A stretch of DNA of 64,000 bases from Mayamaea pseudoterrestris (lineage: Eukaryota), in NCBI GenBank assembly GCA_027923505.1, contig BROI01000014.1:62001-126000 (forward strand), in the 5' to 3' direction. Positions 2,376 to 54,822 of this stretch are shown here, one piece after another; the stretch's first letter is position 1; every line of letters starts with the position of its first letter. The notes under the pieces are model-generated. The model made no database searches. It was not told where the DNA came from and saw only the letters and a list, made by a program, of their open reading frames with translations. The position numbers and the translations under genes were made by a program.

Positions 2376-2592
2376 CTTGACCAAGTTCCTTTTGTGATGT
2401 AATCACGCAAGTAGCGCGTGGATTTCGATTGCCGGCTTGAGAACCGGCGAGCAATTCTTCGAAATCGAAGGGCACGGGTGTCGCACCACTTCTCCGTCGT
2501 GACCTCGCCTCACCTGTTTGACGTCAATTAGCATAGCAAAATCAAAGATCCTCCGTAGCTTTGAGTCAACCTGTAAGCCAAGGGTATCTATT

Positions 2593-28248: not shown

Positions 28249-28289
28249 TATAGACGAGCAGCGCTGCAACCACAAAAGCAAATGTCATA

Positions 28290-30302
28290 TTGGCGTTTCG
28301 ATAGAAAATGACATTTCGACGTTTTGAAAATTCACGAGTGTGACCGCCCATCGCCCATCGCCCAAGCATTCACTTTCGTCTTTTAAAGCTCATACTTAGT
28401 CCTTTTTATTGATTTAAAGCACTAGATCTACTAAGTAAGTGAAGCGGCATCGAACGGTGTAATCAGTTTTGTCATCCGAGCCGTATTGGTCCCGCCGCGG
28501 CACGATTTATGTTTTTATTGCATCCGTTTCCTCCTCGTCGTCAGTCACAGCCTCAATTTACAGCGCTATTCTCTTTTTTGTTATAGTATACACTTACACA
28601 TCGCTTCTATACTTTTTACAGGATAGATATTGCGTTAAAGATTTACCTGAATCCATTAATTGGCGCTTTAGCATGCCGCAGAAGAAGGGTGCCGGATGCA
28701 GGTCAAAACCATCTGTCGGAATGGACCTCCACAAACGCTCTTGTAGACGCTCCCAAAGCAAGCGAACAAGCAAAAACTTTGAACTACTACATGAGAGACA
28801 ACATAAAAAGTGCGAGCGAGCGAACTCGATGGTTTGTGAAAGCTGCATCCCACTATTCCAAGAGTAGCGGCAGTACAAGTCACCTGCAATGGCGCTTTGC
28901 CGCCATTATCAATCAGCAGTCGCATCTATATCCTGCTTGCTGGTAAACGCAGTAGAAGATGCTGCTGATCAGCGACTGGGTGTGTATTGAGCATTTCAAC
29001 GCCGCTGATAAACACAAGACTGCCATTGGGCATTGGCAGGAGCGCAGGAGCATTACCAATCCACCGGGAGCAGCCATATGTGTAGCAATACAACTAACAG
29101 TACTTTTGCCAACACAAACAACCTTATACAAGTGTACATGAGCTTGCAGTAGCAATTTGAATCAGTGTATTAGTACTAACATGCTTGCTGCAGCAGAAAG
29201 TGGCATCACACTAGCAATCAACTCAACTAAAGCTCTTCCATCAAGCATCCAAGCCTCGCCAAGCTATCAACATGGATACTCGCCAAGCTATCAACATGGA
29301 TATTGATCATCCCTGGTTGCATTTTGTGCCTTGTATGCCACCGTTTAAAAGGAAAGCAAGTGTGCAGCAGGCCATCTGCCATCTGCCGCTTCCGCAAGCG
29401 TGGCAATGTGAACGAGTACAGCGCTGCATGTAAATCGCCCTCCTGCACCAAAAGGTCCATCATACATCATAACAGAAGTGCTTTTCAATGCACTTGAAGT
29501 AGTCATGCGTCATGCATTGCAGCGAAAGTGCAACTGCAGCGCGAGTGCAGCTGCGGAGCCATATTGCCATGGCTCAAACCTCCCCACAATTGATGAAATG
29601 GGCATCTCCATGGCATGCTCAACCAGCCAGAATACCAAGGAATGGAATCCAAGTGATGGTGTCATGCGCAAAGCATTCAAATGATTGTTGAAAGTGTCGG
29701 CAGCTTGATAGGGCCAGCGCTTTGTTGCTGGTGCAGGTGATTCGGTACGAAGTCATTTAAATGTTGCTTAAACTCCGCCCTCTTTGGCAATTAGATCATT
29801 TGCGTCTGTATTGATATTAAAGTGCAAAGAATGGAATGAGAAGGGGCTTATTGCCACCAAACGAAGCGTGTGAATCGCCTCAAAGTTTCGCACAAAATGT
29901 GGAGTCTCATATCAAGGGCTCGCATACTTTATACACTCATCAGAACTGGACCAAACTCAGCAATCAGCTCCATTACACTATAGATCATGTGTATGAACGG
30001 TATCAGCGTCAAAAAGGACTTGTGGCGCAATATCAAGGACGGACTGGAGCAAGCAGTCAAAGTGACGGCCGCATCACAACTAAAAAGGTGCTGCGGCGGG
30101 ACCAATACTCATTCGAAAACAAAACTAATCACACCATTAGATGCCGCTTCACTTACTTAGTAGATCTAGTGCTTTAAATCAATAAAAACGGTCTATTATA
30201 AGCTTTAAAAGGCGAAAGTGGATGCTTTGGGCGATGGGCGATGGGCGGTCACACTCGATTTTGCCCGAGCGATCGAAATGTCATGTTGCAGCGAAACGCC
30301 AA
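28290..30302. mobile_element. Non-autonomous long-TIR DNA element, copy 2 (2.0 kb), inverted relative to copy 1
   Basis: Ends TTGGCGTTTCG... and ...CGAAACGCCAA, both flanked by TA. TIRs ~28290-28501 and ~30088-30302. Interior is reverse-complement homologous to copy 1 (e.g. 26681-26720 vs 29832-29871). Confidence 0.75.
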
Positions 30303-33300: not shown

Positions 33301-34012
33301 GGTAAGGTGCTACTTGCCTAGGATACAGACGGTTAGACTAACGAAATTGAGCGCGTAAAACATTTGCATAAGAGCGCCATGTTTTCAACGCTTAGCCTCA
33401 TATGTATGCAAGTGCGAACTTGATTGAGCCCTTGTCTGGATTTTTTGATGAATATGTACTTTGATCAAAATTAGAGCAGTATTATAATTTGGGCGAGCAG
33501 CTATGATTAGCCTGCAACAGAATTCTTAATGGCATGCAGCAAATCTGATTTGGCAACAACTTGTGGGTAGTTTAGTGAAGCTCTAGGATGCTTTGTTAGC
33601 CGCGAACAGAATCACAGAGCTTTTCGGTAGATTGCAACAATGTTACGAGTATCATACTTGTATGATACTGCAATCGCATCAATGGGCGAGCAAGTTTGGG
33701 TAGTGTGGGCGTTTATTGTCAATGGCCACAAACTATCGAAAAAACTGTACTGACACTCCGAGGACAATGACATCTTTTCCGGTCATTTCAGCTACTCCGT
33801 GCTAGGCTTAACTAGAACTTAGTCCGCTAATAAAAATTGCATCCCTCATGACGTCAGCATGACAATTGAATGTTCCCAGACGCTCGTCGGGGAACAGAGG
33901 GACGTCAGCAAATGCCTTCGTCGCGGTCGCCTCCCAAGCAGCCAGCCTCGAAACACTTCGAGCACATCGCACCATGACGAGACGAAACGACTCAACGATT
34001 ACGACTACCAAA

Positions 34013-37000
34013 ATGTTTTGGATTTTTGTTTGGATTCCAGTCTGCTTGGGCACAATTACTATCGTTAGATCTCAGCATCTAGACTGCCTTGTCGACGGCA
34101 AGAAACTTGCAAATTCTCGATGGAGTCTTCGACTGGGAAAGTGCTTCAATGGAAGTGACGGACAATTAAACGTACAGCCGAAAAGCTTCAGCGATAATCA
34201 CGCAACATTGACTTGGACGAGCACGACAACAGGCCTGCTCATACCAAAAGGAGGAAAGCTGTCGTTCGACTTGAGCTGTGCCCCGTTTGTCGTTGACATG
34301 GTAGCACACGGGGAAGAGTCGCTTGCACACTTCAACGACGGGACGAAAGCACTTTTCAATAGCAAAGTTGCTAATGGCACGATGCTCCAAATTGTCGTAA
34401 GCAGTGACAAAATTTTGAATGCCATCGCAGTTCCAGTAGTCCGTGACCAGCGCCACCTTTTATGCCAACGCTCGAGCACCATTTCGGTGCATGACGACGC
34501 CAACAATCTTTTGGAAATGCTTATGAACCCAATTGCCGATGGACCCTTACACACTTTAAGCGACGTGCCGACCGCATCTACGTCAAAAGCTTTAGAAATG
34601 TTGCCAGTAGTGGCGCCCAAGGTAAGTTGCGCATGCATTCATTGTCGGGTGTTTTGATTGGCGTGTCTACGGTAGCTGAGCAGATATGTCGCGTACGAAT
34701 GGTTTCCAGCTATTCTTGTGTGCTACCGACTTGGACTCGACGCATTTGCCAACAGGTAGTGCATAAAGGGCATGTCATGTGTACACCTTGCGCTGGCTCT
34801 GACGAGGCATTTGATGAATTTAGAAAATACGAGTCGAGTCTCACAAATTATGCTCCCAGACGCGACAATTTAAGAGGCTTCTTACACGTTATCTTTTGTC
34901 TATTCATTTTAGACACAGGGAGCGACAATAGCCATTGAGGAATATTCACTTGAAACATCATTGCGAGAGCACAAAATCCAAATCACGATGATCTACCATG
35001 ACGATTTCGAACGGCGATTTCAGATCAAGACAAACTACATGATCGTCGCTATAGACGACAATACGGCAAGTTTCTTTGATGGCTTTCGGCTAGTCGGCTC
35101 ACTGTATATAACCGGGCCCGTAAAGCTACGACTTATCGACGCAAGAATACTTGCAGTGCGTCAAGCTTCAGCGGACACGCCCTATACAATCAATGTGAGC
35201 ATGGAAGCTAGCGGCGAGCAACAACAATATAACTACGATTTAAGTCAGTCGTCACCACTTCAATCTAAAGACCGTGCTCTGCAACAGAACTGTCCTACTT
35301 CAACAGTGACTTGTGGACCTACAGGCAAGATCATTTGTTGGAATACCCAAGGAAAGTTCACACAAATTTGTGCATGCCCTACATGCCAATACACATTCCC
35401 TACGGATCCAAGTACATACACATGTGGTTACTGTGATACCAAAACACAGAAAAACACTTGCATACTAGACCCTCCAACAAATTGTACGTCCAATTCGACA
35501 ATGCTGGTGAGACGCTTGCTTGCCAAAACATCACTCACCCACGTAACCTTCTTGTAACAAGCCTGCAGCGCTAGTCCAACGGATGTAAGAGTGTGCCAGG
35601 CTTCAAATCAAGGTCAAGGTGGCGGGTCAACTCAAACCTTTTCTAGTAGTACACTTTGCGTAGCTGACTCTTCAAGAGGAAATAATGACTATTGTGGCTA
35701 TTGTTTTGGAACAGTAACTAAAGCACCAACAAAAGCACCAACAAAGACGCCAACAAAAAGGCCAACAAAAGCTCCAACAAAAGCTCCAACAAAAGCCCCA
35801 ACAAAAGCTCCAACAAAAGTTCCCACAAAAGCTCCTACTCCAGTAGTGGCACCAGTGGCAGCACCTATTGCAGCACCCGTTAAAGCTCCAACTAAAAGCC
35901 CCACCAAGGTAGACTAAACCGTTCATTGTTCCGCCTTTCTATACTTGCAACTTCCCTTATTTGTCTAAATTTCTCCAATATATTTCCATTTTTGGCACAG
36001 GCACCAACGAAGGCACCAAGTAAAGCTCCCACTAAGGTATATCTTTTCAGATCCTTGTTGTCATGTGACTTGCTTGTGGTCTCCCTTAGTTACTTATATC
36101 ATCTCGTTCTGATTGAATGTTGCACAGGCACCCACCAAGGCACCCACCAAAGCACCCACCAAAGCACCCACTAAAGGACCTACCAAGGCACCTACCAAGG
36201 CACCCACCAAGGCACCCACCAAGGCACCCACCAAGGCACCCACCAAGGCACCCACCAAGGCACCCACCAAAGCTCCCACCAAAGCTCCCACCAAGGCTCC
36301 CACCAAGGCACCCACCAAGGCACCCACCAAGGCACCCACCAAGGTACCTACCAAAGCTCCCACCAAAGCTCCCACCAAGGCACCCACCAAGGCACCCACT
36401 AAGGCACCCACCAAGGCACCCACTAAGGCACCCACCAAAGCTCCCACTAAGGTATGTCAAGGCAGGTCATTGTTGTAGCTTGACTTGCTCTTGGCTTTTC
36501 TTTCTCACAAAAACCATCCCCCATGGATTCAATTCTTGCACAGGCACCAAGCAAGGCCCCAACTAAAGCCCCAACAAAGGTATGTCCCAGCAAGATATTG
36601 TTGCAGCTTGACTTGTGCTTCACATCATCTGCTCACTTTTCTCACCACCTGTTTATTCCATGTTGCACAGGCACCAACTAAAGTGCCCACTAAGACACCT
36701 ACTAAGGTTCCAACAAAGGTACGCCCCAGCAGCACATTGTTGCAGGTTGACTTTTGCATTGCATCACTTGCTCACTTGTATCACCTGTTATTGATTGCTA
36801 TGTTGCACAGGCACCAACAAAGGCACCAACAAAGGCACCCACCAAGGCACCCACCAAGGCACCCACCAAGGCACCTACCAAGGCACCCACTAAGGCACCC
36901 ACCAAAGCTCCCACTAAGGTATGTCAAGGCAGGTCATTGTTGTAGCTTGACTTGCTCTTGGCTTTTCTTTCTCACAAAAACCATCCCCCATGGATTCAAT

Positions 37001-40000
37001 TCTTGCACAGGCACCAAGCAAGGCCCCAACTAAAGCCCCAACAAAGGTATGTCACAGCAAGATATTGTTGCAGCTTGACTTGTGCTTCACATCATCTGCT
37101 CACTTTTCTCACCACCTGTTTATTCCATGTTGCACAGGCACCAACTAAAGTGCCCACTAAGACACCTACTAAGGTTCCAACAAAGGTACGCCCCAGCAGC
37201 ACATTGTCGCAGGTTGACTTTTGCATTGCATCACTTGCTCACTTGTATCACCTGTTATTGATTGCTATGTTGCACAGGCACCAACAAAGGCACCCACCAA
37301 GGCACCCACCAAGGCACCCACTAAGGCACCCACCAAAGCTCCCACTAAGGTATGTCAAGGCAGGTCATTGTTGTAGCTTGACTTGCTCTTGGCTTTTCTT
37401 TCTCACAAAAACCATCCCCCATGGATTCAATTCTTGCACAGGCACCAAGCAAGGCCCCAACTAAAGCCCCAACAAAGGTGTGTCCCAGCAAGATATTGTT
37501 GCAGCTTGACTTGTGCTTCACATCATCTGCTCACTTTTCTCACCACCTGTTTATTCCATGTTGCACAGGCACCAACTAAAGTGCCCACTAAGACACCTAC
37601 TAAGGTTCCAACAAACGTACGCCCCAGCAGCACATTGTCGCAGGTTGACTTTTGCATTGCATCACTTGCTCACTTGTATCACCTGTTATTGATTCCTATG
37701 TTGCACAGGCACCAACAAAGGCACCCACCAAGGCACCCACCAAGGCACCCACTAAGGCACCCATCAAAGCTCCCACTAAGGTATGTCAAGGCAGGTCATT
37801 GTTGTAGCTTGACTTGCTCTTGGCTTTTCTTTCTCACAAAAACCATCCCCCATGGATTCAATTCTTGCACAGGCACCAAGCAAGGCCCCAACTAAAGCCC
37901 CAACAAAGGTATGTCACAGCAAGATATTGTTGCAGCTTGACTTGTGCTTCACATCATCTGCTCACTTTTCTCACCACCTGTTTATTCCATGTTGCACAGG
38001 CACCAACTAAAGCACCCACTAAAAGTCCAACTAAGGTACGCCCCTGCACCACCTTCTTTGCAGCTTGACTTGTGCTTCACATCATCTGCTCACTTTTCTC
38101 ACCACCTTTTTATTTCATGTTGCACAGACACCAACTAAAGTGCCTACTAAGACACCTACTAAGGTTCCAACAAAGGTACACCCAGCATCACATAGTTGCA
38201 GGTTGACTTTTGCATTGCATCACTTGCTCACTTGTATCATCTCTTATTGGTTCAATGTTGCACAGACACCTACCAAGGCACCCACCAAGGCACCTACCAA
38301 GGCACCCACCAAGGCACCCACCAAAGCTCCCACCAAGGCACCTACCAAGGCACCCACCAAGGCACCTACCAAGGCACCCACCAAGGCACCCACCAAAGCT
38401 CCCACTAAGGTATGTCAAGGCAGGTCATTGTTGTAACTTGACTTGCTCTTGGCTTTTCTTTCTCACAAAAACCATCCCCCATGGATTCAATTCTTGCACA
38501 GGCACCAAGCAAGGCCCCAACTAAAGCCCCAACAAAAGTATGTCCCAGCAAGATATTGTTGCAGCTTGACTTGCGCTTCACATCACTTGCTTACTTGTAT
38601 CATTCCCATTAATTTTGTGTTGCACAGGCACCAACTAAAGTTCCCACTATGATGCCCACCAAAGCTCCAACTAAGGTATGACACAGTTCACACATTGTTG
38701 CAGCTTGACTTTTGCTTCACGTCATCTGCTTACTTGTATCACTCGTGTTGCGCAGGCACCAAGCAAGTCACCCACCAAAGCTCCCACAATGGTATGCCCA
38801 GCTGCGCATTGTTTCAACTTGTCTTGCTCTTTTCCTCTTTTTCTCACATGTAAAATATTTACCTCATTTTGATTTTCCAGTCACCAACACGAAGGCCAAG
38901 CAGAACTCCTAGCCAGACACCAAGCAGGATGCCTTCACGCACTCCAAGCAGGACACCAAGCAGGACACCTTCGCGCACCCCTAGTAGAAGTCCAAGCCGT
39001 ACACCTTCCCGCACGCCAAGCAGAAGTCCAAGCACAACTCCTAGTCGTACACCTTCACGCACTCCGAGCAGAACACCAAGCAAGACTCCAAGCAGGACTC
39101 CTAGCCGTGCACCAAGCAGAACACCATCTAGCACTCCAAGCAGAACACCAAGCAGGACTCCAAGCCAAAGGCCAAGCAGGTCCCCCAGTCGCACACCTTC
39201 ACGCACTCCAAGCAGGATGCCAAGCAGAACGCCAAGCAGGAATCCAAGCAGGACTCCCAGCCAAACACCATCACGCACTCCAAGCAGATCTCCTAGCCAT
39301 ACACCAAGCAGGACACCCTCACGTACTCCAAGCATGACTCCAAGTAAAGCACCTTCACGTACCCCTAGTAGAACCCCGAGCCACACACCTTCACGCAATC
39401 CGAGCCAAACTCCAAGCAGGACTCCCAGCCTTACACCTTCAGGCACTCCAAGCACAACACCAAGCATCGCACCAAGCAAGACTCCCAGCCATATACCTTC
39501 ACGCACTCCAAGCAGAACACCAAGTCGGAGTCCTAGCCAAACACCAAGCAGGACACCTTCACATGCTCCAAGCGAGATGCCAAGCAGGACTCCCTCACAC
39601 CTCCCAAGCTATATACCTAGTAGGACTCCAAGCCGCACGCCAAGCAGGTCTCCTAGCCAAAAACCTTCACACCCTTCAAGTATACAACAAAGTAGTGCTC
39701 CAAGCCATTCACCTACAAATACTCCAAGCAGCACTCCTAGCCGCATACCAAGCAGGACACCTTCCCACAATCCTAGCAGGCAACCTTCCCCAACTCCAAG
39801 CATAACACCAAGCTTGTCCCCCTCTGTGACTCCCAGTTTGACTCCCAGCACTCACCCCAGCAGCTTGCCATCAAGTGATCCAAGTGATCTAAGTGCCAAG
39901 CCTAGTGAATCACCTAGCGCTGGACCTAGTCTCCTTCCCAGTGCCACACCAAGCTTGTCCCCCTCTGTGACTCCCAGTTTGACTCCCAGCACTCACCCCA

Positions 40001-43000
40001 GCAGCTTGCCATCAAATGTGCCATCAAGTGATCCAAGTGCCAAGCCTAGTGAATCACCTAGCGCTGGACCTAGTCTCCTTCCCAGTGCCACACCAAGCTT
40101 GTCCCCCTCTGTGACTCCCAGTTTGACTCCCAGCACTCACCCCAGCAGCTTGCCATCAAATGTGCCATCAAGTGATCCAAGTGCCAAGCCTAGTGAATCA
40201 CCTAGCGCTGGACCTAGTCTCCTTCCCAGTGCCACACCAAGCTTGTCCCCCTCTGTGACTCCCAGTTTGACTCCCAGCACTCACCCCAGCAGCTTGCCAT
40301 CAAATGTGCCATCAAGTGATCCAAGTGCCAAGCCTAGTGAATCACCTAGCGCTGGACCTAGTCTCCTTCCCAGTGCCACACCAAGCTTGTCCCCCTCTGT
40401 GACTCCCAGTTTGACTCCCAGCACTCACCCCAGCAGCTTGCCATCAAATGTGCCATCAAGTGATCCAAGTGCCAAGCCTAGTGAATCACCTAGCGCTGGA
40501 CCTAGTCTCCTTCCCAGTGCCACACCAAGCTTGTCCCCCTCTGTGACTCCCAGTTTGACTCCCAGCACTCACCCCAGCAGCTTGCCATCAAATGTGCCAT
40601 CAAGTGATCCAAGTGCCAAGCCTAGTGAATCACCTAGCGCTGGACCTAGTCTCCTTCCCAGTGCCACACCAAGCTTGTCCCCCTCTGTGACTCCCAGTTT
40701 GACTCCCAGCAGTTCCCCCAGCAGCTTGCCATCAAATGTGCCATCAAGTGATCCAAGTGCCAAGCCTAGTGAATCACCTAGCGCTGGACCTAGTCTCCTT
40801 CCCAGTGCCACACCAAGCTTGTCCCCCTCTGTGACTCCCAGTTTGACTCCCAGCACTCACCCCAGCAGCTTGCCATCAAATGTGCCATCAAGTGATCCAA
40901 GTGCCAAGCCTAGTGAATCACCTAGCGCTGGACCTAGTCTCCTTCCCAGTGCCACACCAAGCTTGTCCCCCTCTGTGACTCCCAGTTTGACTCCCAGCAC
41001 TCACCCCAGCAGCTTGCCATCAAATGTGCCATCAAGTGATCCAAGTGCCAAGCCTAGTGAATCACCTAGCGCTGGACCTAGTCTCCTTCCCAGTGCCACA
41101 CCAAGCTTGTCCCCCTCTGTGACTCCCAGTTTGACTCCCAGCACTCACCCCAGCAGCTTGCCATCAAATGTGCCATCAAGTGATCCAAGTGCCAAGCCTA
41201 GTGAATCACCTAGCGCTGGACCTAGTCTCCTTCCCAGTGCCACACCAAGCTTGTCCCCCTCTGTGACTCCCAGTTTGACTCCCAGCACTCACCCCAGCAG
41301 CTTGCCATCAAATGTGCCATCAAGTGATCCAAGTGCCAAGCCTAGTGAATCACCTAGCGCTGGACCTAGTCTCCTTCCCAGTGCCACACCAAGCTTGTCC
41401 CCCTCTGTGACTCCCAGTTTGACTCCCAGCACTCACCCCAGCAGCTTGCCATCAAATGTGCCATCAAGTGATCCAAGTGCCAAGCCTAGTGAATCACCTA
41501 GCGCTGGACCTAGTCTCCTTCCCAGTGCCACACCAAGCTTGTCCCCCTCTGTGACTCCCAGTTTGACTCCCAGCACTCACCCCAGCAGCTTGCCATCAAA
41601 TGTGCCATCAAGTGATCCAAGTGCCAAGCCTAGTGAATCACCTAGCGCTGGACCTAGTCTCCTTCCCAGTGCCACACCAAGCTTGTCCCCCTCTGTGACT
41701 CCCAGTTTGACTCCCAGCACTCACCCCAGCAGCTTGTCTGTCCTCCAAGTGCCTGCTGTTTGTCCCAGCACTCACCCCAGCAGCTTGCCATCAAATGTGC
41801 CATCAAGTGATCCAAGTGCCAAGCCTAGTGAATCACCTAGCGCTGGACCTAGTCTCCTTCCCAGTGCCACACCAAGCTTGTCCCCCTCTGTGACTCCCAG
41901 TTTGACTCCCAGCACTCACCCCAGCAGCTTGCCATCAAATGTGCCATCAAGTGGTCCAAGTGCCAAGCCTAGTGAATCACCTAGCGCTGGACCTAGTCTC
42001 CTTCCCAGTGCCACACCAAGCTTGTCCCCCTCTGTGACTCCCAGTTTGACTCCCAGCACTCACCCCAGCAGCTTGCCATCAAATGTGCCATCAAGTGATC
42101 CAAGTGCCAAGCCTAGTGAATCACCTAGCGCTGGACCTAGTCTCCTTCCCAGTGCCACACCAAGCTTGTCCCCCTCTGTGACTCCCAGTTTGACTCCCAG
42201 CACTCACCCCAGCAGCTTGCCATCAAATGTGCCATCAAGTGATCCAAGTGCCAAGCCTAGTGAATCACCTAGCGCTGGACCTAGTCTCCTTCCCAGTGCC
42301 ACACCAAGCTTGTCCCCCTCTGTGACTCCCAGTTTGACTCCCAGCACTCACCCCAGCAGCTTGCCATCAAATGTGCCATCAAGTGATCCAAGTGCCAAGC
42401 CTAGTGAATCACCTAGCGCTGGACCTAGTCTCCTTCCCAGTGCCACACCAAGCTTGTCCCCCTCTGTGACTCCCAGTTTGACTCCCAGCACTCACCCCAG
42501 CAGCTTGCCATCAAATGTGCCATCAAGTGATCCAAGTGCCAAGCCTAGTGAATCACCTAGCGCTGGACCTAGTCTCCTTCCCAGTGCCACACCAAGCTTG
42601 TCCCCCTCTGTGACTCCCAGTTTGACTCCCAGCACTCACCCCAGCAGCTTGCCATCAAATGTGCCATCAAGTGATCCAAGTGCCAAGCCTAGTGAATCAC
42701 CTAGCGCTGGACCTAGTCTCCTTCCCAGTGCCACACCAAGCTTGTCCCCCTCTGTGACTCCCAGTTTGACTCCCAGCACTCACCCCAGCAGCTTGCCATC
42801 AAATGTGCCATCAAGTGATCCAAGTGCCAAGCCTAGTGAATCACCTAGCGCTGGACCTAGTCTCCTTCCCAGTGCCACACCAAGCTTGTCCCCCTCTGTG
42901 ACTCCCAGCACTCACCCCAGCAGCTTGCCATCAAATGTGCCATCAAGTGATCCAAGTGCCAAGCCTAGTGAATCACCTAGCGCTGGACCTAGTCTCCTTC

Positions 43001-46000
43001 CCAGTGCCACACCAAGCTTGTCCCCCTCTGTGACTCCCAGTTTGACTCCCAGCACTCACCCCAGCAGCTTGCCATCAAATGTGCCATCAAGTGATCCAAG
43101 TGCCAAGCCTAGTGAATCACCTAGCGCTGGACCTAGTCTCCTTCCCAGTGCCACACCAAGCTTGTCCCCCTCTGTGACTCCCAGTTTGACTCCCAGCACT
43201 CACCCCAGCAGCTTGCCATCAAATGTGCCATCAAGTGATCCAAGTGCCAAGCCTAGTGAATCACCTAGCGCTGGACCTAGTCTCCTTCCCAGTGCCACAC
43301 CAAGCTTGTCCCCCTCTGTGACTCCCAGTTTGACTCCCAGCACTCACCCCAGCAGCTTGCCATCAAATGTGCCATCAAGTGATCCAAGTGCCAAGCCTAG
43401 TGAATCACCTAGCGCTGGACCTAGTCTCCTTCCCAGTGCCACACCAAGCTTGCCCCCCTCTGTGACTCCCAGTTTGACTCCCAGCACTCACCCCAGCAGC
43501 TTGCCATCAAATGTGCCATCAAGTGATCCAAGTGCCAAGCCTAGTGAATCACCTAGCGCTGGACCTAGTCTCCTTCCCAGTGCCACACCAAGCTTGTCCC
43601 CCTCTGTGACTCCCAGTTTGACTCCCAGCACTCACCCCAGCAGCTTGCCATCAAATGTGCCATCAAGTGATCCAAGTGCCAAGCCTAGTGAATCACCTAG
43701 CGCTGGACCTAGTCTCCTTCCCAGTGCCACACCAAGCTTGTCCCCCTCTGTGACTCCCAGTTTGACTCCCAGCACTCACCCCAGCAGCTTGCCATCAAAT
43801 GTGCCATCAAGTGATCCAAGTGCCAAGCCTAGTGAATCACCTAGCGCTGGACCTAGTCTCCTTCCCAGTGCCACACCAAGCTTGTCCCCCTCTGTGACTC
43901 CCAGTTTGACTCCCAGCACTCACCCCAGCAGCTTGCCATCAAATGTGCCATCAAGTGATCCAAGTGCCAAGCCTAGTGAATCACCTAGCGCTGGACCTAG
44001 TCTCCTTCCCAGTGCCACACCAAGCTTGTCCCCCTCTGTGACTCCCAGTTTGACTCCCAGCACTCACCCCAGCAGCTTGCCATCAAATGTGCCATCAAGT
44101 GATCCAAGTGCCAAGCCTAGTGCATCACCTAGCGCTGGACCTAGTCTCCTTCCCAGTGCCACACCAAGCTTGTCCCCCTCTGTGACTCCCAGTTTGACTC
44201 CCAGCACTCACCCCAGCAGCTTGCCATCAAATGTGCCATCAAGTGATCCAAGTGCCAAGCCTAGTGAATCACCTAGCGCTGGACCTAGTCTCCTTCCCAG
44301 TGCCACACCAAGCTTGTCCCCCTCTGTGACTCCCAGTTTGACTCCCAGCACTCACCCCAGCAGCTTGCCATCAAATGTGCCATCAAGTGATCCAAGTGCC
44401 AAGCCTAGTGCATCACCTAGCGCTGGACCTAGTCTCCTTCCCAGTGCCACACCAAGCTTGTCCCCCTCTGTGACTCCCAGTTTGACTCCCAGCACTCACC
44501 CCAGCAGCTTGCCATCAAATGTGCCATCAAGTGATCCAAGTGCCAAGCCTAGTGAATCACCTAGCGCTGGACCTAGTCTCCTTCCCAGTGCCACACCAAG
44601 CTTGTCCCCCTCTGTGACTCCCAGTTTGACTCCCAGCACTCACCCCAGCAGCTTGCCATCAAATGTGCCATCAAGTGATCCAAGTGCCAAGCCTAGTGAA
44701 TCACCTAGCGCTGGACCTAGTCTCCTTCCCAGTGCCACACCAAGCTTGTCCCCCTCTGTGACTCCCAGTTTGACTCCCAGCACTCACCCCAGCAGCTTGC
44801 CATCAAATGTGCCATCAAGTGATCCAAGTGCCAAGCCTAGTGAATCACCTAGCGCTGGACCTAGTCTCCTTCCCAGTGCCACACCAAGCTTGTCCCCCTC
44901 TGTGACTCCCAGTTTGACTCCCAGCACTCACCCCAGCAGCTTGCCATCAAATGTGCCATCAAGTGATCCAAGTGCCAAGCCTAGTGAATCACCTAGCGCT
45001 GGACCTAGTCTCCTTCCCAGTGCCACACCAAGCTTGTCCCCCTCTGTGACTCCCAGTTTGACTCCCAGCACTCACCCCAGCAGCTTGCCATCAAATGTGC
45101 CATCAAGTGATCCAAGTGCCAAGCCTAGTGAATCACCTAGCGCTGGACCTAGTCTCCTTCCCAGTGCCACACCAAGCTTGTCCCCCTCTGTGACTCCCAG
45201 TTTGACTCCCAGCACTCACCCCAGCAGCTTGCCATCAAATGTGCCATCAAGTGATCCAAGTGCCAAGCCTAGTGAATCACCTAGCGCTGGACCTAGTCTC
45301 CTTCCCAGTGCCACACCAAGCTTGTCCCCCTCTGTGACTCCCAGTTTGACTCCCAGCACTCACCCCAGCAGCTTGCCATCAAATGTGCCATCAAGTGATC
45401 CAAGTGCCAAGCCTAGTGAATCACCTAGCGCTGGACCTAAGTCTCCTTCCCAGTGCCACACCAAGCTTGTCCCCCTCTGTGACTCCCAGTTTGACTCCCA
45501 GCACTCACCCCAGCAGCTTGCCATCAAATGTGCCATCAAGTGATCCAAGTGCCAAGCCTAGTGAATCACCTAGCGCTGGACCTAGTCTCCTTCCCAGTGC
45601 CACACCAAGCTTGTCCCCCTCTGTGATCTCCAGTTTGCCTCCCAGCACTCACCCCAGCAGCTTGCCATCAAATGTGCCATCAAGTGATCCAAGTGCCAAG
45701 CCTAGTGAATCACCTAGCGCTGGACCTAGTCTCCTTCCCAGTGCCACACCAAGCTTGTCCCCCTCTGTGACTCCCAGTTTGACTCCCAGCACTCACCCCA
45801 GCAGCTTGCCATCAAATGTGCCATCAAGTGATCCAAGTGCCAAGCCTAGTGAATCACCTAGCGCTGGACCTAGTCTCCTTCCCAGTGCCACACCAAGCTT
45901 GTCCCCCTCTGTGACTCCCAGTTTGACTCCCAGCACTCACCCCAGCAGCTTGCCATCAAATGTGCCATCAAGTGATCCAAGTGCCAAGCCTAGTGCATCA

Positions 46001-49000
46001 CCTAGCGCTGGACCTAGTCTCCTGCCCCAGTGCCACACCAAGCTTGCCCCTCTGTGACTCCCAGTTTGACTCCCAGCACTCACCCCAGCAGCTTGCCATC
46101 AAATGTGCCATCAAGTGATCCAAGTGCCAAGCCTAGTGAATCACCTAGCGCTGGACCTAGTCTCCTTCCCAGTGCCACACCAAGCTTGTCCCCCTCTGTG
46201 ACTCCCAGTTTGACTCCCAGCACTCACCCCAGCAGCTTGCCATCAAATGTGCCATCAAGTGATCCAAGTGCCAAGCCTAGTGAATCACCTAGCGCTGGAC
46301 CTAGTCTCCTTCCCAGTGCCACACCAAGCTTGTCCCCCTCTGTGACTCCCAGTTTGACTCCCAGCACTCACCCCAGCAGCTTGCCATCAAATGTGCCATC
46401 AAGTGATCCAAGTGCCAAGCCTAGTGAATCACCTAGCGCTGGACCTAGTCTCCTTCCCAGTGCCACACCAAGCTTTGTCCCCTTTGTGACTCCCAGTTTG
46501 ACTCCCAGCACTCACCCCAGCAGCTTGCCATCAAATGTGCCATCAAGTGATCCAAGTGCCAAGCCTAGTGCATCACCTAGCGCTGGACCTAGTCTCCTTC
46601 CCAGTGCCACACCAAGCTTGTCCCCCTCTGTGACTCCCAGTTTGACTCCCAGCACTCACCCCAGCAGCTTGCCATCAAATGTGCCATCAAGTGATCCAAG
46701 TGCCAAGCCTAGTGCATCACCTAGCACTGGAGCTATTTCTCCTTTCCAGTGCACCACCAAGCTTGTCCCCCTCTGTGACTCCCAGTTTGACTCCCAGCAC
46801 TCACCCCAGCAGCTTGCCATCAAATGTGCCATCAAGTGATCCAAGTGCCAAGCCTAGTGAATCACCTAGCGCTGGACCTAGTCTCCTTCCCAGTGCCACA
46901 CCAAGCTTGTCCCCCTCTGTGACTCCCAGTTTGACTCCCAGCACTCACCCCAGCAGCTTGCCATCAAATGTGCCATCAAATGTGCCAAGCCAAGTGAATC
47001 ACCTAGCGCTGGACCTAGTCTCCTTCCCAGTGCCACACCAAGCTTGTCCCCCTCTGTGACTCCCAGTTTGACTCCCAGCACTCACCCCAGCAGCTTGCCA
47101 TCAAATGTGCCATCAAGTGATCCAAGTGCCAAGCCTAGTGAATCACCTAGCGCTGTGTCCTGGCCAGTCTCCTAGTCTCCCAGTGCCACACCAAGCTTGT
47201 CCCCCTCTGTGACTCCCAGTTTGACTCCCAGCACTCACCCCAGCAGCTTGCCATCAAATGTGCCATCAAGTGATCCAAGTGCCAAGCCTAGTGCAATCAC
47301 CTAGGCGCTGGACCCAGTCTCCTTCCCAGTGCCACACCAAGCTTGTCCCCCTCTGTGACTCCCAGTTTGACTCCCAGCACTCACCCCAGCAGCTTGCCAT
47401 CAAATGTGCCATCAAGTGATCCAAGTGCCAAGCCTAGTGAATCACCTAGCGCTGGACCTAGTCTCCTTCCCAGTGCCACACCAAGCTTGTCCCCCTCTGT
47501 GACTCCCAGTTTGACTCCCAGCACTCACCCCAGCAGCTTGCCATCAAATGTGCCATCAAGTGATCCAAGTGCCAAGCCTAGTGAATCACCTAGCGCTGGA
47601 CCTAGTCTCCTTCCCAGTGCCACATCAAGCTTGTCCCCCTCTGTGACTCCCAGTTTGACTCCCAGCACTCACCCCAGCAGCTTGCCATCAATTGTGCCAT
47701 CAAGTGATCCAAGCGTCAAGCCCAGTGAATCACCTAGCGCTGGATCTAGTGTCCTTCCGAGTGCCACACCAAGCGTGTCACCCTCTGTGACTCCCAGTTT
47801 GACTCCCAGCACTCACCCCAGCAGCTTGCCATCAAATGTGCCATCAAGTGATCCAAATGCCAAGCCTAGTGCATCATCTGGCGCTGGACCCAGTCTCCTT
47901 CCCAGTGCCACACCAAGCTTGTCCCCCTATGTGACTCCCAGTTTGACTCCCAGCACTCACCCCAGCAGCTTGCCATCAAATGTGCCATCAAGTGATCCAA
48001 GTGCCAAGCCTAGTGAATCACCTAGCGCTGGACCTAGTCTCCTTCCCAGTGCCACACCAAGCTTGTCCCCCTCTGTGACTCCCAGTTTGACTCCCATCAC
48101 TCACCCCAGCAGCTTGCCATCAAATGTGCCATCAAGTGACCCCAGTGCCAAGCCTAGTGAATCACCTAGCGCCGGACCAATTGTCCTTTTCAGTGCTGCA
48201 CCAAGTTTGTCCCCCTCTGTGACTCCCAGTTTGACTCCCAGCACTCACCCCAGCAGCTTGCCATCGAATGTGCCATCAAGTGATCCAAGTGCCAAGCCTA
48301 ATGAATCACCTAGCGCTGGACCTAGTCTCCTTGCCTGAAGCTTGTCCCCCTCTGTGACTCCCAGTTTGACTCCCAGCACTCACCCCAGCAGCTTGCCATC
48401 AAATGTGCCATCAAGTGATCCAAGTGCCAAGCCCAGTGAATCACCTAGCGCTGGACCTAGCGTCCTTCCCAGTGCCACACCAAGCGTGTCACCCTCTGTG
48501 ACTCCCAGTTTGACTCCCAACACTCACCCCAGCAGCTTGCCATCAAATGTGCCATCAAGTGACCCCAGTGCCAAGCCTAGTGAATCACCTAGCGCCGGAC
48601 CAATTGTCCTTCTCAGTGCTGCACCAAGTTTGTCACCTTCTGTGACTCCCAGTTTGACTCTAAGCACTCACCCCAGCAGCTTGCCATCAAATGTGCCGTC
48701 AAGTGCATCAAGTGACACGAGTGTCAAGCCCAGTGAATCACTTAGTAATGGACCTAGTCTCCTTCCCAGTGCAGCACCAAGCTTGTCACCTTCCATGACT
48801 CAAAGTTTGACTCCCAGCACTCACCCCAGCAGCTTGCTATCAAGTGTGCCATCAAGTGACCCAAGCAGCAAGCCCAGTGCCTCACCTAGCACTGGACCTA
48901 GTCTCCTTCCCAGCGTCGCACCAAGCTTGTCACCCTCTGTGACTCCCAGTTTGACTCCCAGCACCCAACCCAGCAGCTTGCCAGTGACTGTTGTGCCAAT

Positions 49001-50423
49001 TACCTTGTCTGAAGAACCTAGTGCTTTGCTGTTTCCTACTCCAACTTTGTTAACATCATTTCCAAGTACTTTTTTGAATTCTTCACCAAGCATCCAATCT
49101 AGCACCACACCTTCCTTTGCTCCAATCTCTCAACAAATGCTTATTTTGCCTACACACCTCCCAAAAGATTCTTTTACACCTTCCTTTGCTCCAATCTCAC
49201 AACAAATGCTTATTTTGCCTACACACCTCCCAAAAAATTCATTTACACCTTCCAGCATGATTGAAAAACCTGTGAAGGCCATGATGCGGTTGAATATGAA
49301 AATGATGCGCATGCGGATGCCATTGGGAATGATGCAAACACCAACACAGATGCATATGCATATGCCCACCAGTCGGCCTGCTATTGGTACCAACATTCAT
49401 ATAAAAGGAAAAGGTTTTCCGGTCACTTCCAAAAACGGTAACGTGACTGGCAAAGTTAAAGGCTCCAAAACAAAATCAAACAAAGGTCTGCCTTTGCACA
49501 ATGCTGCCAAGGGAATATTGTATCAACAAACTGAAGCAAAGGGATCAAAGCGTACCTCAACCATTTCTAAATCCAATTGGAGCAAAATGAAACATATTAA
49601 TAAGGTGACGGCAGAAAACTCTAGTAGTAAGGGACAGAATAATTCAAAAATGGTGGCGGGAAAGCTGTCATCTAGTGGCAAGGGGCTAGGTATGTCTAGC
49701 AAAAAGTCAAAGCATATCACGTCGAAGAACAAAATGAGAGGGAAGGGACAGAACAGAAGTAGCAAGGGATTTAAAGCTTCAAAAAGCAAGAACACCAACA
49801 AACCAAAGGCTCAAGTGAAGGAAAGGCCACAAAAATCAAAAGTAATGAGCAAAAATGGCAGGAGTGCACTAATGTCGCAAAATAGAGACAATAAAGACAC
49901 CAAACCCAAGAAGAACTCAAGCCAGCAGCTTGGATTTGCAAATGCGTTTGATTCACCAAACGCTGCTACAGATAGTGCACTAATTCCGGTCACCCAAAGC
50001 TCCACTGGAGCATCCCACCAAGGTGTACACATCACCAGTTCCAAATTCTCCAAGCATAAACACTCAAAAATGCCTTCACTGCGCATGATCGACTCCAGTT
50101 TGAACCGGAACTGGCCTGAAACTGCGGATATTGATGGTCTAGGCGTGGCGAGAGCCGGAATCTTAGAAAGTGTTTCCGAAATGGAGTTCTTGCCAATTAC
50201 AACACAAACTCACTTGAAGCATGGCAGTGGCATCAACAAGTGGATGGAACCTTACGTTCCTCTTCTTGTGATTGGCATGGTGGGGCTTTTATTATGCTGT
50301 CTATGCTGCCTATGGGTATACTGCATCATTTGTTGTCGACAAAGAAAGGAAGATGACAACCACACAGAAGGAGAGGAGTTTACTCTTAATTTTATGAACA
50401 GAACATCATCAGAAATAGATTGA
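34013..50423 (+). CDS. Giant type-I membrane mucin-like protein (~4,800 aa, 22 exons): signal peptide, globular and Cys-rich N-terminus, (APTK)n, (SRTP)n, 48-aa repeats, Lys-rich region, TM helix
   Basis: Signal-like MFWIFVWIPVCLGTITIVRS. Introns 34622-34912 and 35484-35561, then 19 phase-0 introns within 35909-38880. Final exon 38881-50423 ends with TM YVPLLVIGMVGLLLCCLCCLWVYCIICC-RQRKE. Frame breaks at ~45440-47340 and a TGA at 48336 lie inside the repeat array. Confidence 0.72.
35909..38880 (+). repeat. Tandem intron-exon cassette array: 18 xPTK exons and 19 homologous 80-92-nt introns
   Basis: Junctions are CAG|(G/A)CACC...|GT. Intron type GTATGTCAAGGCAGG...TTCTTGCACAG recurs at 36452, 36919, 37350, 37781 and 38410. 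Confidence 0.9.
38881..39800 (+). repeat. Degenerate 12-bp coding repeat, (TPSR)n
   Basis: Translation PSRTPSQTPSRMPSRT..., with varied codon usage. Confidence 0.9.
39805..48980 (+). repeat. 144-bp coding minisatellite, ~63 copies (TPSLSPSVTPSLTPSTHPSSLPSNVPSSDPSAKPSESPSAGPSLLPSA)
   Basis: Near-identical sequence lines recur every 720 bp (5 x 144). The unit is 12 xPSx tetrapeptides. Copies diverge toward the 3' end. Confidence 0.95.
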
Positions 50424-51564
50424 ATTTGTGCCATTACAATATGTTCTAAAATTGTATGTTTTAACATTGGTTTGATGAATCTATGTGCATATTTTAGGTT
50501 AAACCTATCTGGAGTACTCCAAGAAAGCATCCCCCTATGTTACATACTTCTTTTGGAGTTGGTGAACTCCTGCCTTGCGTAAAGTATAACCATCTTCAAC
50601 CATAATATAGTCTGCAGTGCTTTTTAACGTCACTCAGCCCACATATCTATGGCTTTTTCAATCAGCCCATACTCATTTATACAATAATGAAACGCTCTGA
50701 GTGCCAGCGTGATCAGTACCTTGAGACTTGAGCTTGGCAGTGCTTGCGTGCGTGAAGCATGCAAAAGGCTTAGCTCGTAAAGGTATTGTAGAACCTTTGA
50801 TCCCACCACCTCCTCGCCTCGCGAACGTGTCATTTACCACTGAGACATTGCTGTCGGAAGCGCCGATTGATAAAGCGGCGTGAAAGCGCAACATGCACCA
50901 CACCCGCCGAGCCGCATCATCACGATGTGCATAGTCGATACTCGTAGTTTGGCGCGCAACACTGTTATAACCCAACACTCCGGCGCTATTAATAAAACAC
51001 GGCATCGCTTACCAATAGCAGCATTCCTGATTCTGACACATTACAAGAAGGATAAAGAGCGCGTTGCAGTGCTTGCTTCTTGCCTCCCTCCAACTCGTCA
51101 TGCATCATGGCATGCAACACTCTCTTTTCAGGTGACGGCCGATCAATGTCCAGGATCAATCTTCTAAACCAATCATTGCAAACGTTTCGTGTTTCATCTT
51201 CGCTTGACATGCAGCAACTCGAAAAAACGATAACTTGTGCTTTTGAGGTGAACTCGCCAACGGCACATGCCATACATCGCGAGAAACGAAGGTGCCGAGC
51301 TCGCCCAACGTATGATGGATGCATGTCGCTACTCCAACGTTGGCTCGATCAATTAACGAAACACTCGTTGACGACTGCCGCGTGCGCCATGGCGATTTGA
51401 GCCATGCGTCTGCGCCTCGCCGACACTTGCATGGGCCAAGGTTTCGATATTTACATGTGACAGGAGCATACTTCGCCCGATGATCATTATTAGCTTGCGA
51501 AGCAAATGCAAGCACACACAAACGACAAGGTTGAAAAAGTTTGAAACGATATTGCAGTTGCACC

Positions 51565-54500
51565 ATGAAGTCTTTGGTTACCACGAGCTCCTTGCTCTTG
51601 ATGCTTGTCGGTCTCTGCTGCGGTCCCAGCCTTGTCCGAGCGGAAAACTCCGTCAGAGGAAATCGAAAGGATCATGAGGAGTATGCGGCGGCGTACTACG
51701 CGGAAGCAAATACTTTTAACGAGCAAGCATTCTCGGCGTCGAGCTTGAGTGAGCAAGACATTTCGCTTTTCGAACATGCCATGGCGAGGCTTGTCGAGTC
51801 CATGTCCCTGTCGTTTCCGACGCGCGCCCCGACGATTCCAGCACCATCTTCGCCAAGACCATCCCCATTGATGACGCCACGTCCAACGTTGCAGGCTCCA
51901 GTGACGAAAGCTCCCAGTATTGTAGTGCCAAGCACTACAGTTCCAAGCGGTGCGCCGACGGAGATTTTTCCATCCAAGGCGCCGATTGTTCCAGGTACTT
52001 CTCGTCCGTCCACCACTAAGCCAGTGACGACGCAGCGTCCAACGTTAAGCCCTACCGCTCCATCGACAAAAGCACCAAGTCAGCCCATTGTCACGACACT
52101 TCCGAGCTTCCTGCCAATTAAGGCGCCGACGAGAATTCCCTCCCCTCGGCCGACTAGTGTCACGTCTCCTCGGCCGACGCTACCCTTGACAAGTGCACCC
52201 AGCCAAGTTCCGGTGCTTGCTCCAGTTGCTCAGCCTGTAGCTCCAGTAACAACTGCTCCAGTGTTTGCTCCGACAAGTGTTGCTCCAGTCGCTCCACCAA
52301 CAGCTCCAGTCACAACAGCTCCGGTGCTTGCTCCGTCGAGTGTTTCTCCTGTCGCTCAACCTACACCACCTGTTCTTGCACCATCGAGTGCTGCTCCTAT
52401 TGCTCGCCCTACAGCACCCGTGCTTGCTCCAGTTGTGCAACCTACAGCTCCAGTGACATCAGCTCCCGTACTTGCTCCAACCAGTGCTGCTCCAGTCGTG
52501 CAACCTACAGCTCCAGTGGCTGCTCCATCGAGTGTTGCACCGCCCACGCCACCAGTATCTGCTCCCGTCCTCGCTCCAACAAGTACTGCTCCGGTGGCTC
52601 AGCCAGCAGCACCAGTGACAGGTGCTCCCGTGCTGCTTCCAACAAGTGCCGCTCCGATTATGCAACCCATCACTACCCGACCAGTTGCTGTTCCTTCCCC
52701 GCGACCGACGTTAGTTACTACTCCTCGTCCCACGTCTCCAGCCACTACTGCTCCCGCGCTTGCTCCGGCAAGTTTTGCTCCTGTTATACAACCAACGACT
52801 TCTGCACCAGTTGCTGTCCCGACGAGTGTTCCTGTGAGACCGCCGAGCACAGCCCCAGCTCCATCTACACCCAGTCCGGTTGCAACGCCGCTTCCGACGC
52901 TGCCGTCCACCAAGGTTCCAACTATGCTTCCGAGCCAGCAACCTGGGGGTGGTGCTGGAAGCAAGAGACCGTCTCAGGCAGGCGGTCCCACGATATCCCC
53001 GGCGTTCCCACCTGTCGCTCCATCAACGCCCCGCCCCAGTCCGATCACTTCTCCGCGGCCCACCCCAAGAGCAACGGCTCCATCAACAAAGGCGCCCACA
53101 AGCGCCCCAGTACGTCCCCCATCGTTTCCGCCTGTTGCACCACCAACGCCGAGACCTAGTCTGATCACATCACCTCGCCCAACACCGAGGCCAACGGCTC
53201 CGTCAACAAAAGTACCTTCAGGTGTTCCACTCTTTGTCCCAAGCGAGCAACCTGGTGGTGGCGTTGGAAGCAAGAAACCATCTCAAGCAGGCGGCCCAAG
53301 CGTAGCTCCAGGCACGCCAAGACCCAGCCCTTTGCAGTCACCGCGACCAACCAAACAAGTCAAGACGCCAGCCCCGAGTTCTGCTCCGTTGCGGACGCCG
53401 AGACCTACTGGTCCAGTTCAGTCGCCGCGACCAACGCAGCAGAAGCAACCTGTCAAACCGCCGACGCTGTGCCCGGTACTGACGCCAAGACCATCCGGGC
53501 CAGTGAAGTCACCACGACCGACGCAATTGAAGCCCGCCAGATCGCCCCCTCCCATCAAGGGAGGAAAGAAAGTCAAGGCGGGCAAAAAGGTTAAGGGTGG
53601 CAAGAAAATAAAGGCCGGGAAGAAAATCAAGGGTAAAAAGGTGAAAGCTGGGAAGAAGCAAAAGGGCGCCAAAAAGGTGAAAGCGGCTAAGAAGGTGAAA
53701 GCTGGGAAGAAGCAGAAGGGCGCCAAAAAAGTGAAAGCAGGGAAGCTGAAAGGCGGTCCGAAGAAATTAAAGTCAGGGAAGACTGCAAAACTTAAAGGCA
53801 AACGACCAAAAGTAAAAGGTGCCAAGCAGGTGAAAGTGAAGGCAAGCAAGCAGTCAAAAAGCAAGAGTGCAAAGCAAGCGACTGCACTAATTGCTGAGAG
53901 TGCCATGTCGCTCGCTCCTACTTCCTCAGAACTATATGCATTGTCAACGCCATCAGTCAAAGAAAGCAGTCAGGTCAACTCTCAGAATGGTAAGCCATTA
54001 ACTTGACTGTCATAAATAACGTGTCTCTCCGATGCACCACTTACAAAGACTTCGTGTGCAGGTCTTAAATGCTCCATGTCAGTCATGGTTAAATGTTCTA
54101 CGGAAGTCAATCAAAGCAAGCTAAATTGTACCCCCATCACACCTCCCTCAGTCTCGAAATGTACTGGAAACAAAGTGCGACAGCTTCAGTTTATTTATAA
54201 AGCCAAGCCATGCACTGCTTCTAATGCGACTGGGGAAGGGTTTCAATGCACAGATTCCAACGGCGGCCCCATTTCATCGAAAGTGTTCGTTGACATCATC
54301 ACTGGAACATCTAGCTATTTCAACACAACGGTACAGCCTGGCGATATTTTTGGCATTATTAATTCCGGTGATTTGGCTGAAACAATGAAGTTTGAAATAC
54401 ACAGCATGAATGATGACGCTCCCGATTTGCTGCTTCAAACCGTGTTCTTGAGTTCCAACTGTGCCAAGGAACACGATATAAGTCTGTTGACTCAGTACGG

Positions 54501-54822
54501 AGCCCTTCAGCTTGTTGCATTCGAAAGCGACAAGGACGGGTTTCAGTCTGCCAATGGCTTTCACTCGCAGAGCGTCCAGGTAATGAATGATGGGAACGAG
54601 GATGTCACGCTGCGCTGGGCAAATTTGACATCACCCCTGGCTGGCACAACAGCGTCACTCAGCTTGTCCGACATGCGAATCGAGAATGGTCAGTCTGCTG
54701 ACTTGCATTTGGCGTCAAGCACAACTGACGGAGCTTTCACAAGCACTCTGAAAGTTGCAGGATTTACAGCGAATGGCGATCTTGTAAACTGTTCTGTTGT
54801 CGCCACACGCGCTGTCAACTAG
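51565..54822 (+). CDS. Secreted Pro/Thr-rich and Lys-rich protein with C-terminal Cys-containing diatom domain (DUF7467-like)
   Basis: Signal MKSLVTTSSLLLMLVGLCC, ESMSLS motif, PTPRPT/APV repeats, KKVKAG repeats. Phase-1 intron 53990-54061. C-terminal domain KCTG..LQFIY..KPC..QCTDSNGGP..YF..VQPG..LLQTV..SLLTQYG. Domain name is from memory of the family. Confidence 0.8.

Follow-up and report, generated by a model that had tools for sequence, protein, structure and literature searches.

What does a 16.4-kb locus dense in tandem repeats encode, and is its product held in a membrane? The locus lies at 34013-50423 on the forward strand of a 64,000-nt window, the whole stretch of DNA that was analysed and to which all coordinates refer, of contig BROI01000014.1 of Mayamaea pseudoterrestris. 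A first, sequence-only reading had listed features here that run from a signal peptide to a short tail behind a membrane helix, and all of them are present. The locus is a real gene, because the reading frame is kept by its introns, the N-terminal domain has homologues and the non-repeat codons at the C-terminal end are open. As that reading proposed, it encodes a very long, secreted, mucin-like polypeptide rich in proline, threonine and serine (PTS-rich). The best explanation, put forward tentatively, is a single intron-rich gene for a giant mucin-like surface glycoprotein which serves as an anchored tether and is processed at an RxLQ motif. Tethering to the membrane is unproven and hinges on breaks of the reading frame in the assembly.

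Exon-intron structure of the gene

The window is eukaryotic: genes for a kinesin motor (E 3.9e-41) and for a UDP-glucose pyrophosphorylase lie in it, and the introns of its genes are short and of the GT..AG type. On the forward strand of the locus C strongly exceeds G, and tandem repeats are dense, with units of 12 bp, 431/467 bp and 144 bp. The model built here has 22 exons and 21 introns, all 21 of which keep the frame (Table 1). Nineteen introns of 80-92 nt, all in phase 0 and with GTA[TC]G donors and TTGCACAG-type acceptors, alternate with mini-exons in an array of cassettes. Three families (A, B and C) can be told apart among these introns, with 97-100% identity within a family, and all 19 can be aligned with one another. 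Each of the 18 mini-exons (36-324 nt) is a multiple of 12 nt and consists of whole xPTK tetrads, (xPTK)3-27. Near-identical introns combined with mini-exons of whole units imply that exons and introns were amplified jointly as cassettes, and this amplification is the strongest internal evidence for a spliced coding gene. Between 36360 and 38037, introns i5, i8, i11, i14 and i18 are identical at 98-100%, and the two other families at 97-100%.

The C-over-G skew and the tandem repeats would also fit a non-coding satellite in which open frames arose by chance from the bias of the repeat, and long repeat-driven open reading frames (ORFs) do occur on the reverse strand too. This explanation, to which we assign next to no probability, is already contradicted by the canonical GT..AG phase-0 introns with exon lengths in multiples of 12, by the homologues of the N-terminal domain and by the open non-repeat region at the C-terminal end. 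In the latter, 479 codons contain no stop, compared with 29 and 27 stops in the other two frames and at least 12 in each of 5,000 shuffles.

At the 5' end, the N-terminus that starts from the ATG at 34013 is hydrophobic (MFWIFVWIPVCLGTITIVRS), with its hydrophobic maximum at residues 1-12 and a V-x-S end; a second, in-frame ATG is found upstream at 33975. The join at intron 1 falls within a linker that varies among the homologues. Intron 2 was placed as given in Table 1 because it retains CSASPTDVRVCQASNQG, the counterpart of ICHASNQG and ICHAGAQSG in P0001 and P0002, two of the homologues described below. A candidate at 35507-35599 was rejected, as it would remove a Cys-containing stretch conserved in the same two proteins. 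The Cys-rich module, which spans exons 2 and 3, has 14 Cys within 114 aa.

Table 1. Features of the gene at 34013-50423, in window coordinates (TM, transmembrane; TRF, Tandem Repeats Finder)
Feature	Position	Strand	Description
Exon 1	34013-34621	+	ATG start, signal-peptide-like N-terminus, first beta-rich half of the conserved N-terminal domain
Intron 1	34622-34912	+	291 nt, phase 0, GTAAGT...TTTTAG
Exon 2	34913-35483	+	Second beta-rich half, KDRALQ linker, first part of the Cys-rich module
KDRALQ	35267-35284	+	From sequence; RAL at 35273-35281
Intron 2	35484-35561	+	78 nt, GTACGT...AACAAG; 9 frame-keeping options enumerated
Exon 3	35562-35908	+	Remainder of the Cys-rich module, first (xPTK) run
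Cassette array	35909-38880	+	19 introns and 18 mini-exons, in 431/467-bp tandem units
Start of exon 22, (TPSR)-type block	38881-39804	+	308 aa, net charge +50
144-bp tandem array	39805-48983	+	48-aa unit TPSLSPSVTPSLTPSTHPSSLPSNVPSSDPSAKPSESPSAGPSLLPSA, 63.5 copies (TRF)
Frame-broken zone	45313-47333	+	Units 39-52, 8 indel events, 15 substitutions
TGA	48336-48338	+	At a unit junction shorter by 9 nt; between 348-codon and 694-codon ORFs in the same frame
Non-repeat region, predicted extracellular	48984-50261	+	Open frame between the array and the TM helix
69-bp duplication	49107-49253	+	2.1 copies (TRF)
Met patch	49266-49367	+	Within the non-repeat region
Lys/Ser-rich stretch	49395-49922	+	176 aa, 22% K
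Juxtamembrane stretch	49923-50261	+	Within the non-repeat region
Predicted TM helix	50262-50336	+	LLVIGMVGLLLCCLCCLWVYCIICC, 8 Cys
Tail and stop	50337-50423	+	28 aa, acidic, net charge -4; TGA at 50421-50423

N-terminal domain family and the RxLQ motif

A phmmer search with exon 2 against 1.84 billion representative sequences returned four proteins and no more (E 7e-33 to 2e-15), namely P0001 (495 aa, 49% identity, E 7e-33), P0002, P0003 and P0004. All four are metagenome proteins of at most 495 aa, and three come from contigs 2-3 kb long. The homology extends over the signal peptide, the two beta-rich halves, the linker and the Cys-rich module, and it includes exon 1, which can be aligned with the N-termini of P0001, P0002 and P0004. 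The beta-rich domain and the 14-Cys module form a small undescribed family. The N-terminal part matches no Pfam family, its profile search of the PDB gave a chance match only (E 0.53), and exon 1 had no usable match in the ESM Atlas. An AlphaFold2 (AF2) model of P0001 from an eight-row alignment is all-beta, with a mean predicted local distance difference test score (pLDDT) of 43.6, which is too poor for a fold search. A further profile search found only P0002 and P0003 again; among metagenome loci for the relatives, 427 stretches were matched with a two-row alignment and 89 with P0002, and none was confirmed.

The RXL site proposed earlier gains support from this family. R, L and Q of the RxLQ motif are invariant in six of six aligned rows, comprising the gene in the window and four homologue clusters, within a gapped linker that is variable in both sequence and length. 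Such invariance within a variable linker is typical of short linear motifs, protease sites among them. The motif is positioned between the beta-rich domain (~300 aa) and the 14-Cys module, and a low-confidence AF2 model has no secondary structure there. The two longest relatives, P0001 and P0002, end at DYCG[YT]W, exactly where the gene described here continues into xPTK; their ends (W-Y-V and W-stop) probably reflect read-through into a GT intron.

Repeat blocks and composition

All three repeat blocks have Pro at every fourth residue, as the sequence-only reading had stated: the gap from one Pro to the next equals 4 in 118 of 119 cases in the xPTK block (482 aa), in 72 of 76 in the TPSR block and in 464 of 471 in the block of 48-aa units. 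The combined content of Pro, Ser and Thr is 49%, 70% and 66%, respectively, and the result is a rod of ~4,000 residues with this spacing. Charge is distributed unevenly along the rod. The first 790 aa are polycationic, with +115 in the xPTK block and +50 in the TPSR block, whereas the 48-aa units have a charge of -1 each and are nearly neutral. In exon 3, the Pfam PT repeat PF04886 scores above its gathering threshold (31.9 versus 26.2 bits, E 9.7e-8); this match is to a compositional repeat and carries no functional information.

Some 63 units of 48 aa had been proposed for the array, in agreement with the TRF count, and wrap-around alignment to the unit resolves 64 units over 9.2 kb. Among units 2-38, 30 of the 37 are identical, and the sole indels, +51 and -12, leave the frame intact. 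One unit, at 41674-41868, has an exact in-frame insertion of 51 nt that adds a Cys (…SVLQVPAVCPS…). TRF also reports a repeat with a 195-bp period at 41568-41931 (1.9 copies, 100% matches).

C-terminal region and predicted membrane helix

The predicted TM helix has a Kyte-Doolittle maximum of 2.84 over 19 residues, and single-sequence AF2 predicts a helix there (pLDDT 93-98), with 27 residues at pLDDT >=90. When the last 166 aa are modelled by AF2, the helix alone is confident and the remainder stays below pLDDT 60; this includes the juxtamembrane 110 aa, which have no confident fold. The C-terminal region has no Pfam match. In the ESM Atlas, the last 340 aa retrieved scores of at most 0.88 only, all to generic single-pass membrane glycoproteins that can be taken as leads only.

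Breaks in the reading frame of the array

The sequence-only reading had joined all features in one gene model of about 4,800 aa. The parts are joined in this way only when five frame switches and two stops ahead of the TM helix, which that reading did not mention, are read through. The length stands only as a conceptual read-through of ~4,770 aa: the longest uninterrupted spliced ORF has 3,145 aa, ends at a stop at 45541-45543 and is without the helix. By wrap-around alignment and frame tracing, the switches are located at 45439, 46024/46046, 46736, 46979-81 and 47294/47304, and two in-frame stops are unavoidable, TAG at 47173-47175 and the TGA at 48336-48338. Through the broken zone the Pro-Ser (PS) frame passes through phases 1, 2, 1, 2, 1 and then 0, and it can be traced across every break into the 694-codon ORF, which follows the TGA at 48336, contains the TM helix and ends at the stop at 50421-50423.

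In units 39-52 the bases are near-identical to the consensus, and the net indel lengths are +1, 0, -1, 0, +1, -7, +9 and +2, while units 53-64 have 86 substitutions and two indel events only (-9, +9). Indel events relate to substitutions as 8:15 in the former and as 2:86 in the latter (Fisher p = 3.8e-5). Outside the broken zone four of four indels are multiples of 3; inside it, five of eight are not. According to the available text of the genome report, the assembly was made from Nanopore reads with an N50 of 8.6 kb at 52x, by merging two assemblies, after which short reads were used for polishing and haplotigs were purged, and the organism is diploid with a heterozygosity of 2.97% (PMC9724779). 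The read N50 is shorter than the 9.2-kb array. The contrast between indels and substitutions favours consensus error over decay without proving it, and the five switches and two stops may for the most part be consensus errors of the long-read assembly. An intact, anchored protein is a nearly even call.

The breaks could also be taken at face value. The locus would then be a decaying or truncated allele, with either a secreted, unanchored 3,145-aa mucin or no stable product, and the 3' part with the TM helix would be left as a recent relic. Five switches and two unavoidable stops are after all present in the sequence as given, and several of the events are complex (-7, +9, -9), unlike single-base homopolymer slips. 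The TGA at 48336 sits among well-behaved units that are dominated by substitutions and whose other indels are in frame; the array around it looks accurately assembled, and this stop may be real. In addition, 5.4 kb of identical units are free of errors, which is awkward for a simple explanation by a noisy repeat. Together with the uninterrupted ORF that ends short of the helix, these observations weigh against an intact tether. A null allele could also be tolerated because the organism is diploid with the heterozygosity given above, and the published giants of adhesive trails are, in the accessible parts of their descriptions, without a membrane anchor. What speaks against real breaks is that the damage is limited to 3 kb of a 16.4-kb gene, in which 21 introns, 920 N-terminal codons, 5.6 kb of the array and 694 C-terminal codons are intact, and that the 8:15 ratio is far from ordinary decay and unlike that of the neighbouring units. 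We consider real breaks unlikely, though they remain a serious contender.

Two further ways around the breaks were considered. Rescue by introns was rejected, as the array is without a donor or acceptor resembling the GTA[TC]G...TTGCACAG introns of the gene, and a rescuing intron would need to be 2-3 kb long, compared with 78-291 nt for the 21 introns of the model. Two independent genes, an upstream one for a secreted mucin and a downstream one for a Lys-rich TM protein, would fit the stops that separate the ORFs, an arrangement that the sequence-only reading had itself allowed for as a refutation. However, the 694-codon ORF starts inside the 144-bp repeat and in register with it, has no start codon of its own with a signal peptide, and is connected to the upstream ORF by a traceable PS frame. 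Two genes are therefore very improbable.

Silaffin test and neighbouring genes

A further claim of the sequence-only reading, that the protein has silaffin-like KxxK tracts, did not survive. The expression for penta-lysine clusters, K..K..K.{1,2}K..K, as quoted in bioRxiv 10.1101/2021.09.18.460806, has no match in the 3,140-aa N-terminal model or in the 694-aa C-terminal ORF. The Lys-rich stretch contains 8 K..K, compared with 8.3 +- 2.2 in 2,000 shuffles. Under a weaker rule for silica targeting, two K..K within 10 residues, four adjacent pairs are found, with the count of K..K itself at shuffle expectation. In the xPTK block the Lys spacing is 4, not 3. Judged by the silaffin criterion, the giant protein itself falls outside this class.

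The cluster is strongly represented in the two genes that adjoin the giant gene downstream. The gene at 51535-54822 (+) has a signal peptide, a long region rich in PT, PS and AP, a poly-Lys block (KGGKKVKAGKK...) and 19 matches to the penta-lysine cluster, and a C-terminal DUF7467 (PF24269, E 5.3e-10) follows after a stop or short gap at 54004-54015. Its design is silaffin-like. The convergent gene at 61140-56694 (-) has a signal peptide with ARNL, TPRPT repeats, KGSK/KTKGSK repeats and a Ser/Gly tail, with 15 matches to the cluster and DUF7467 at the C-terminus (E 2.2e-12). The two make up a pair of candidate genes for cell-wall proteins beside the giant gene, and with their 19 and 15 clusters the neighbourhood looks cell-wall related.

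This bears on the main functional rival, in which the protein is intact and has its role in the frustule or the silica deposition vesicle (SDV). It would be a type I precursor like Sin1, SAP1 and SAP3, the ectodomain of which is freed by RXL-type and juxtamembrane cleavage and enters the organic casing of the silica. Several findings are consistent with such a role. The RxLQ motif is conserved, and RXL has so far been reported only from biosilica-associated proteins, as far as the accessible text of PMC5647440 goes. Sin1, SAP1 and SAP3 are type I TM proteins with cleaved anchors according to the available part of bioRxiv 10.1101/2021.09.18.460806. Two adjacent secreted PT-rich genes have penta-lysine clusters, and the weaker rule is found four times in the giant protein. 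The latter is nonetheless devoid of penta-lysine clusters, with K..K at shuffle expectation, and its C-terminal region, tail included, is similar to no protein searched. A rod of ~1 micrometre is furthermore out of scale with the SAPs as they are described in the available text of PMC5647440, and the adjacency of genes is by itself weak evidence. We accordingly rate a role in the frustule or the SDV as improbable.

Elsewhere in the window, a large imperfect palindrome at 26272-30250, centred near 28.27 kb, lies in the ORF-poor 8 kb upstream of the gene; it has ten inverted-repeat pairs with arms of up to 350 nt that are 76-89% complementary. A frame of 1,952 codons at 3419-9277 (-) matches endonuclease/exonuclease/phosphatase only weakly (E 0.0027, short of the Pfam cut-off) and may be a retroelement-type or a novel large gene. 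Another of 796 codons at 12-2402 (-) has amphipathic-looking repeats rich in Ala, Glu and Lys and a hydrophobic stretch near the C-terminus, with no Pfam match.

Comparison with known systems

The closest known kind are the giant PTS-rich adhesive-trail proteins of raphid diatoms. In the accessible parts of the reports, giant PTS-rich proteins dominate these trails (bioRxiv 10.1101/2023.03.06.531300), and those of Craspedostauros australis include CaTrailin4 (894 kDa), Ca5609 (>1 MDa) and the mucin-like CaFAP1 (bioRxiv 10.1101/2023.03.06.531300; PMC11420354). Like them, the protein described here has a signal peptide, very long PTS tandem repeats as the bulk of its chain, Cys-rich modules that precede or separate PTS regions and non-repeat parts of restricted species distribution, and in both cases the gene model is limited by the assembly of long tandem repeats. 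Unlike them, it has no CAA (PF20597), GDPH or vWA domain, as searched by Pfam in exons 1-3 and the C-terminal region and by a string search for GDPH. CAA-domain Trailins are described, in the text available, as having no domain for membrane anchoring; in the gene studied here the array leads on to a TM helix, provided that the frame is continuous. The strict four-residue period of Pro and the polycationic xPTK and TPSR blocks are not described for the C. australis giants in the accessible text, in a comparison made by description only.

SAP1/3 and silicanin-1 of centric diatoms share the succession of signal peptide, RXL, Ser-rich region, single TM helix and short tail; here these parts lie in one frame only on reading through the breaks at 45.4-48.3 kb. 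In the portions of the papers available, the serine-rich segments of SAPs are 16-51 residues long and full-length TpSAP3-GFP runs at ~70 kDa (PMC5647440), and the defining trait of SAPs is a conserved 28-aa cytoplasmic segment directly after the TM helix (PMC5647440; bioRxiv 10.1101/2021.09.18.460806). By these descriptions the protein of M. pseudoterrestris differs in its far larger size and in a folded N-terminal domain of its own family. With silaffin-type cell-wall proteins it has in common a signal peptide, an RXL motif and Ser/Lys-rich low complexity, besides two silaffin-like genes next door; it differs in the complete lack of penta-lysine clusters and in K..K that are unenriched.

The animal mucins MUC1, MUC4 and MUC16 have a type I layout in which a huge ectodomain of PTS tandem repeats is followed by a TM helix and a short tail. 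The resemblance in layout and as a bottle-brush surface tether is an analogy only, as the lineages are unrelated, and no SEA, NIDO, AMOP or vWD domain was detected by Pfam. In a limited literature search, no published description of a membrane-anchored PTS giant in diatoms was found. The kind is therefore known, both as giant PTS-rich surface and adhesive proteins of diatoms and as tethered mucins. Distinct are the undescribed N-terminal family with RxLQ, the strict Pro period with polycationic blocks, the cassette array and a possible anchor.

Proposed mechanism and function

If the frame is read through, the cell would make a type I membrane protein. Its rod would be hydroxylated and O-glycosylated and could extend to ~1 micrometre, to judge by general knowledge of PTS-rich proteins and by the diatom literature. 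A diatom protease of the RXL type may cut at RxLQ and release the N-terminal domain, while the TM helix would serve as the anchor, with its Cys residues possibly acylated. The product would be a membrane-anchored tether in the mucilage of the cell surface or of the raphe, the cationic outer end of which may bind anionic polysaccharide or mucilage, silica or the substratum. Composition, neighbouring genes and the literature suggest that the protein may act in adhesion and gliding or in the frustule.

A more far-reaching version of this mechanism concerns the motility of raphid diatoms. The motility model requires a transmembrane link that is still unidentified (PMC13056149, Fig. 1 legend), and proteins ~2 micrometres long could span the raphe (PMC11420354), according to the text available from each source. 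The protein could be this missing membrane-spanning link of the adhesion-motility complex: the acidic tail would be coupled to the actomyosin of the raphe, the rod of ~1 micrometre would pass through the raphe slit, and the polycationic end, once cleaved at RxLQ, would stick to the substratum or mucilage, so that pulling on the anchor moves the cell. This is a highly speculative proposal with a small probability.

Beyond the frame breaks, the anchored tether has to be weighed against four other considerations that count to its disadvantage. The C-terminal 479 aa, tail included, have no relative among candidates of near or greater length, and in none of the four relatives is the N-terminal domain joined to a TM end. 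The narrow distribution of the family argues against a general component of diatom motility, and none of the adhesion domains CAA, GDPH and vWA was detected in the parts scanned. All inferences are drawn from the genomic letters of a single assembly.

Significance for diatom adhesion and gene evolution

Should the breaks prove real, the locus would be no more than a mucin gene that is truncated or dying. In either case, repeat-rich giants of this kind are unsafe to read from polished long-read assemblies, and the cassette array, with its 19 near-identical phase-0 introns, is a clear case of the joint amplification of exons and introns, whatever the function of the protein. Cleavage at the conserved RxLQ, if it occurs, would carry RXL-type processing beyond the proteins of biosilica. 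To glide, raphid diatoms pull on adhesive strands that they have secreted. A PTS-rich giant with a TM helix and a cytoplasmic tail, if true, would be a concrete candidate for the transmembrane link.

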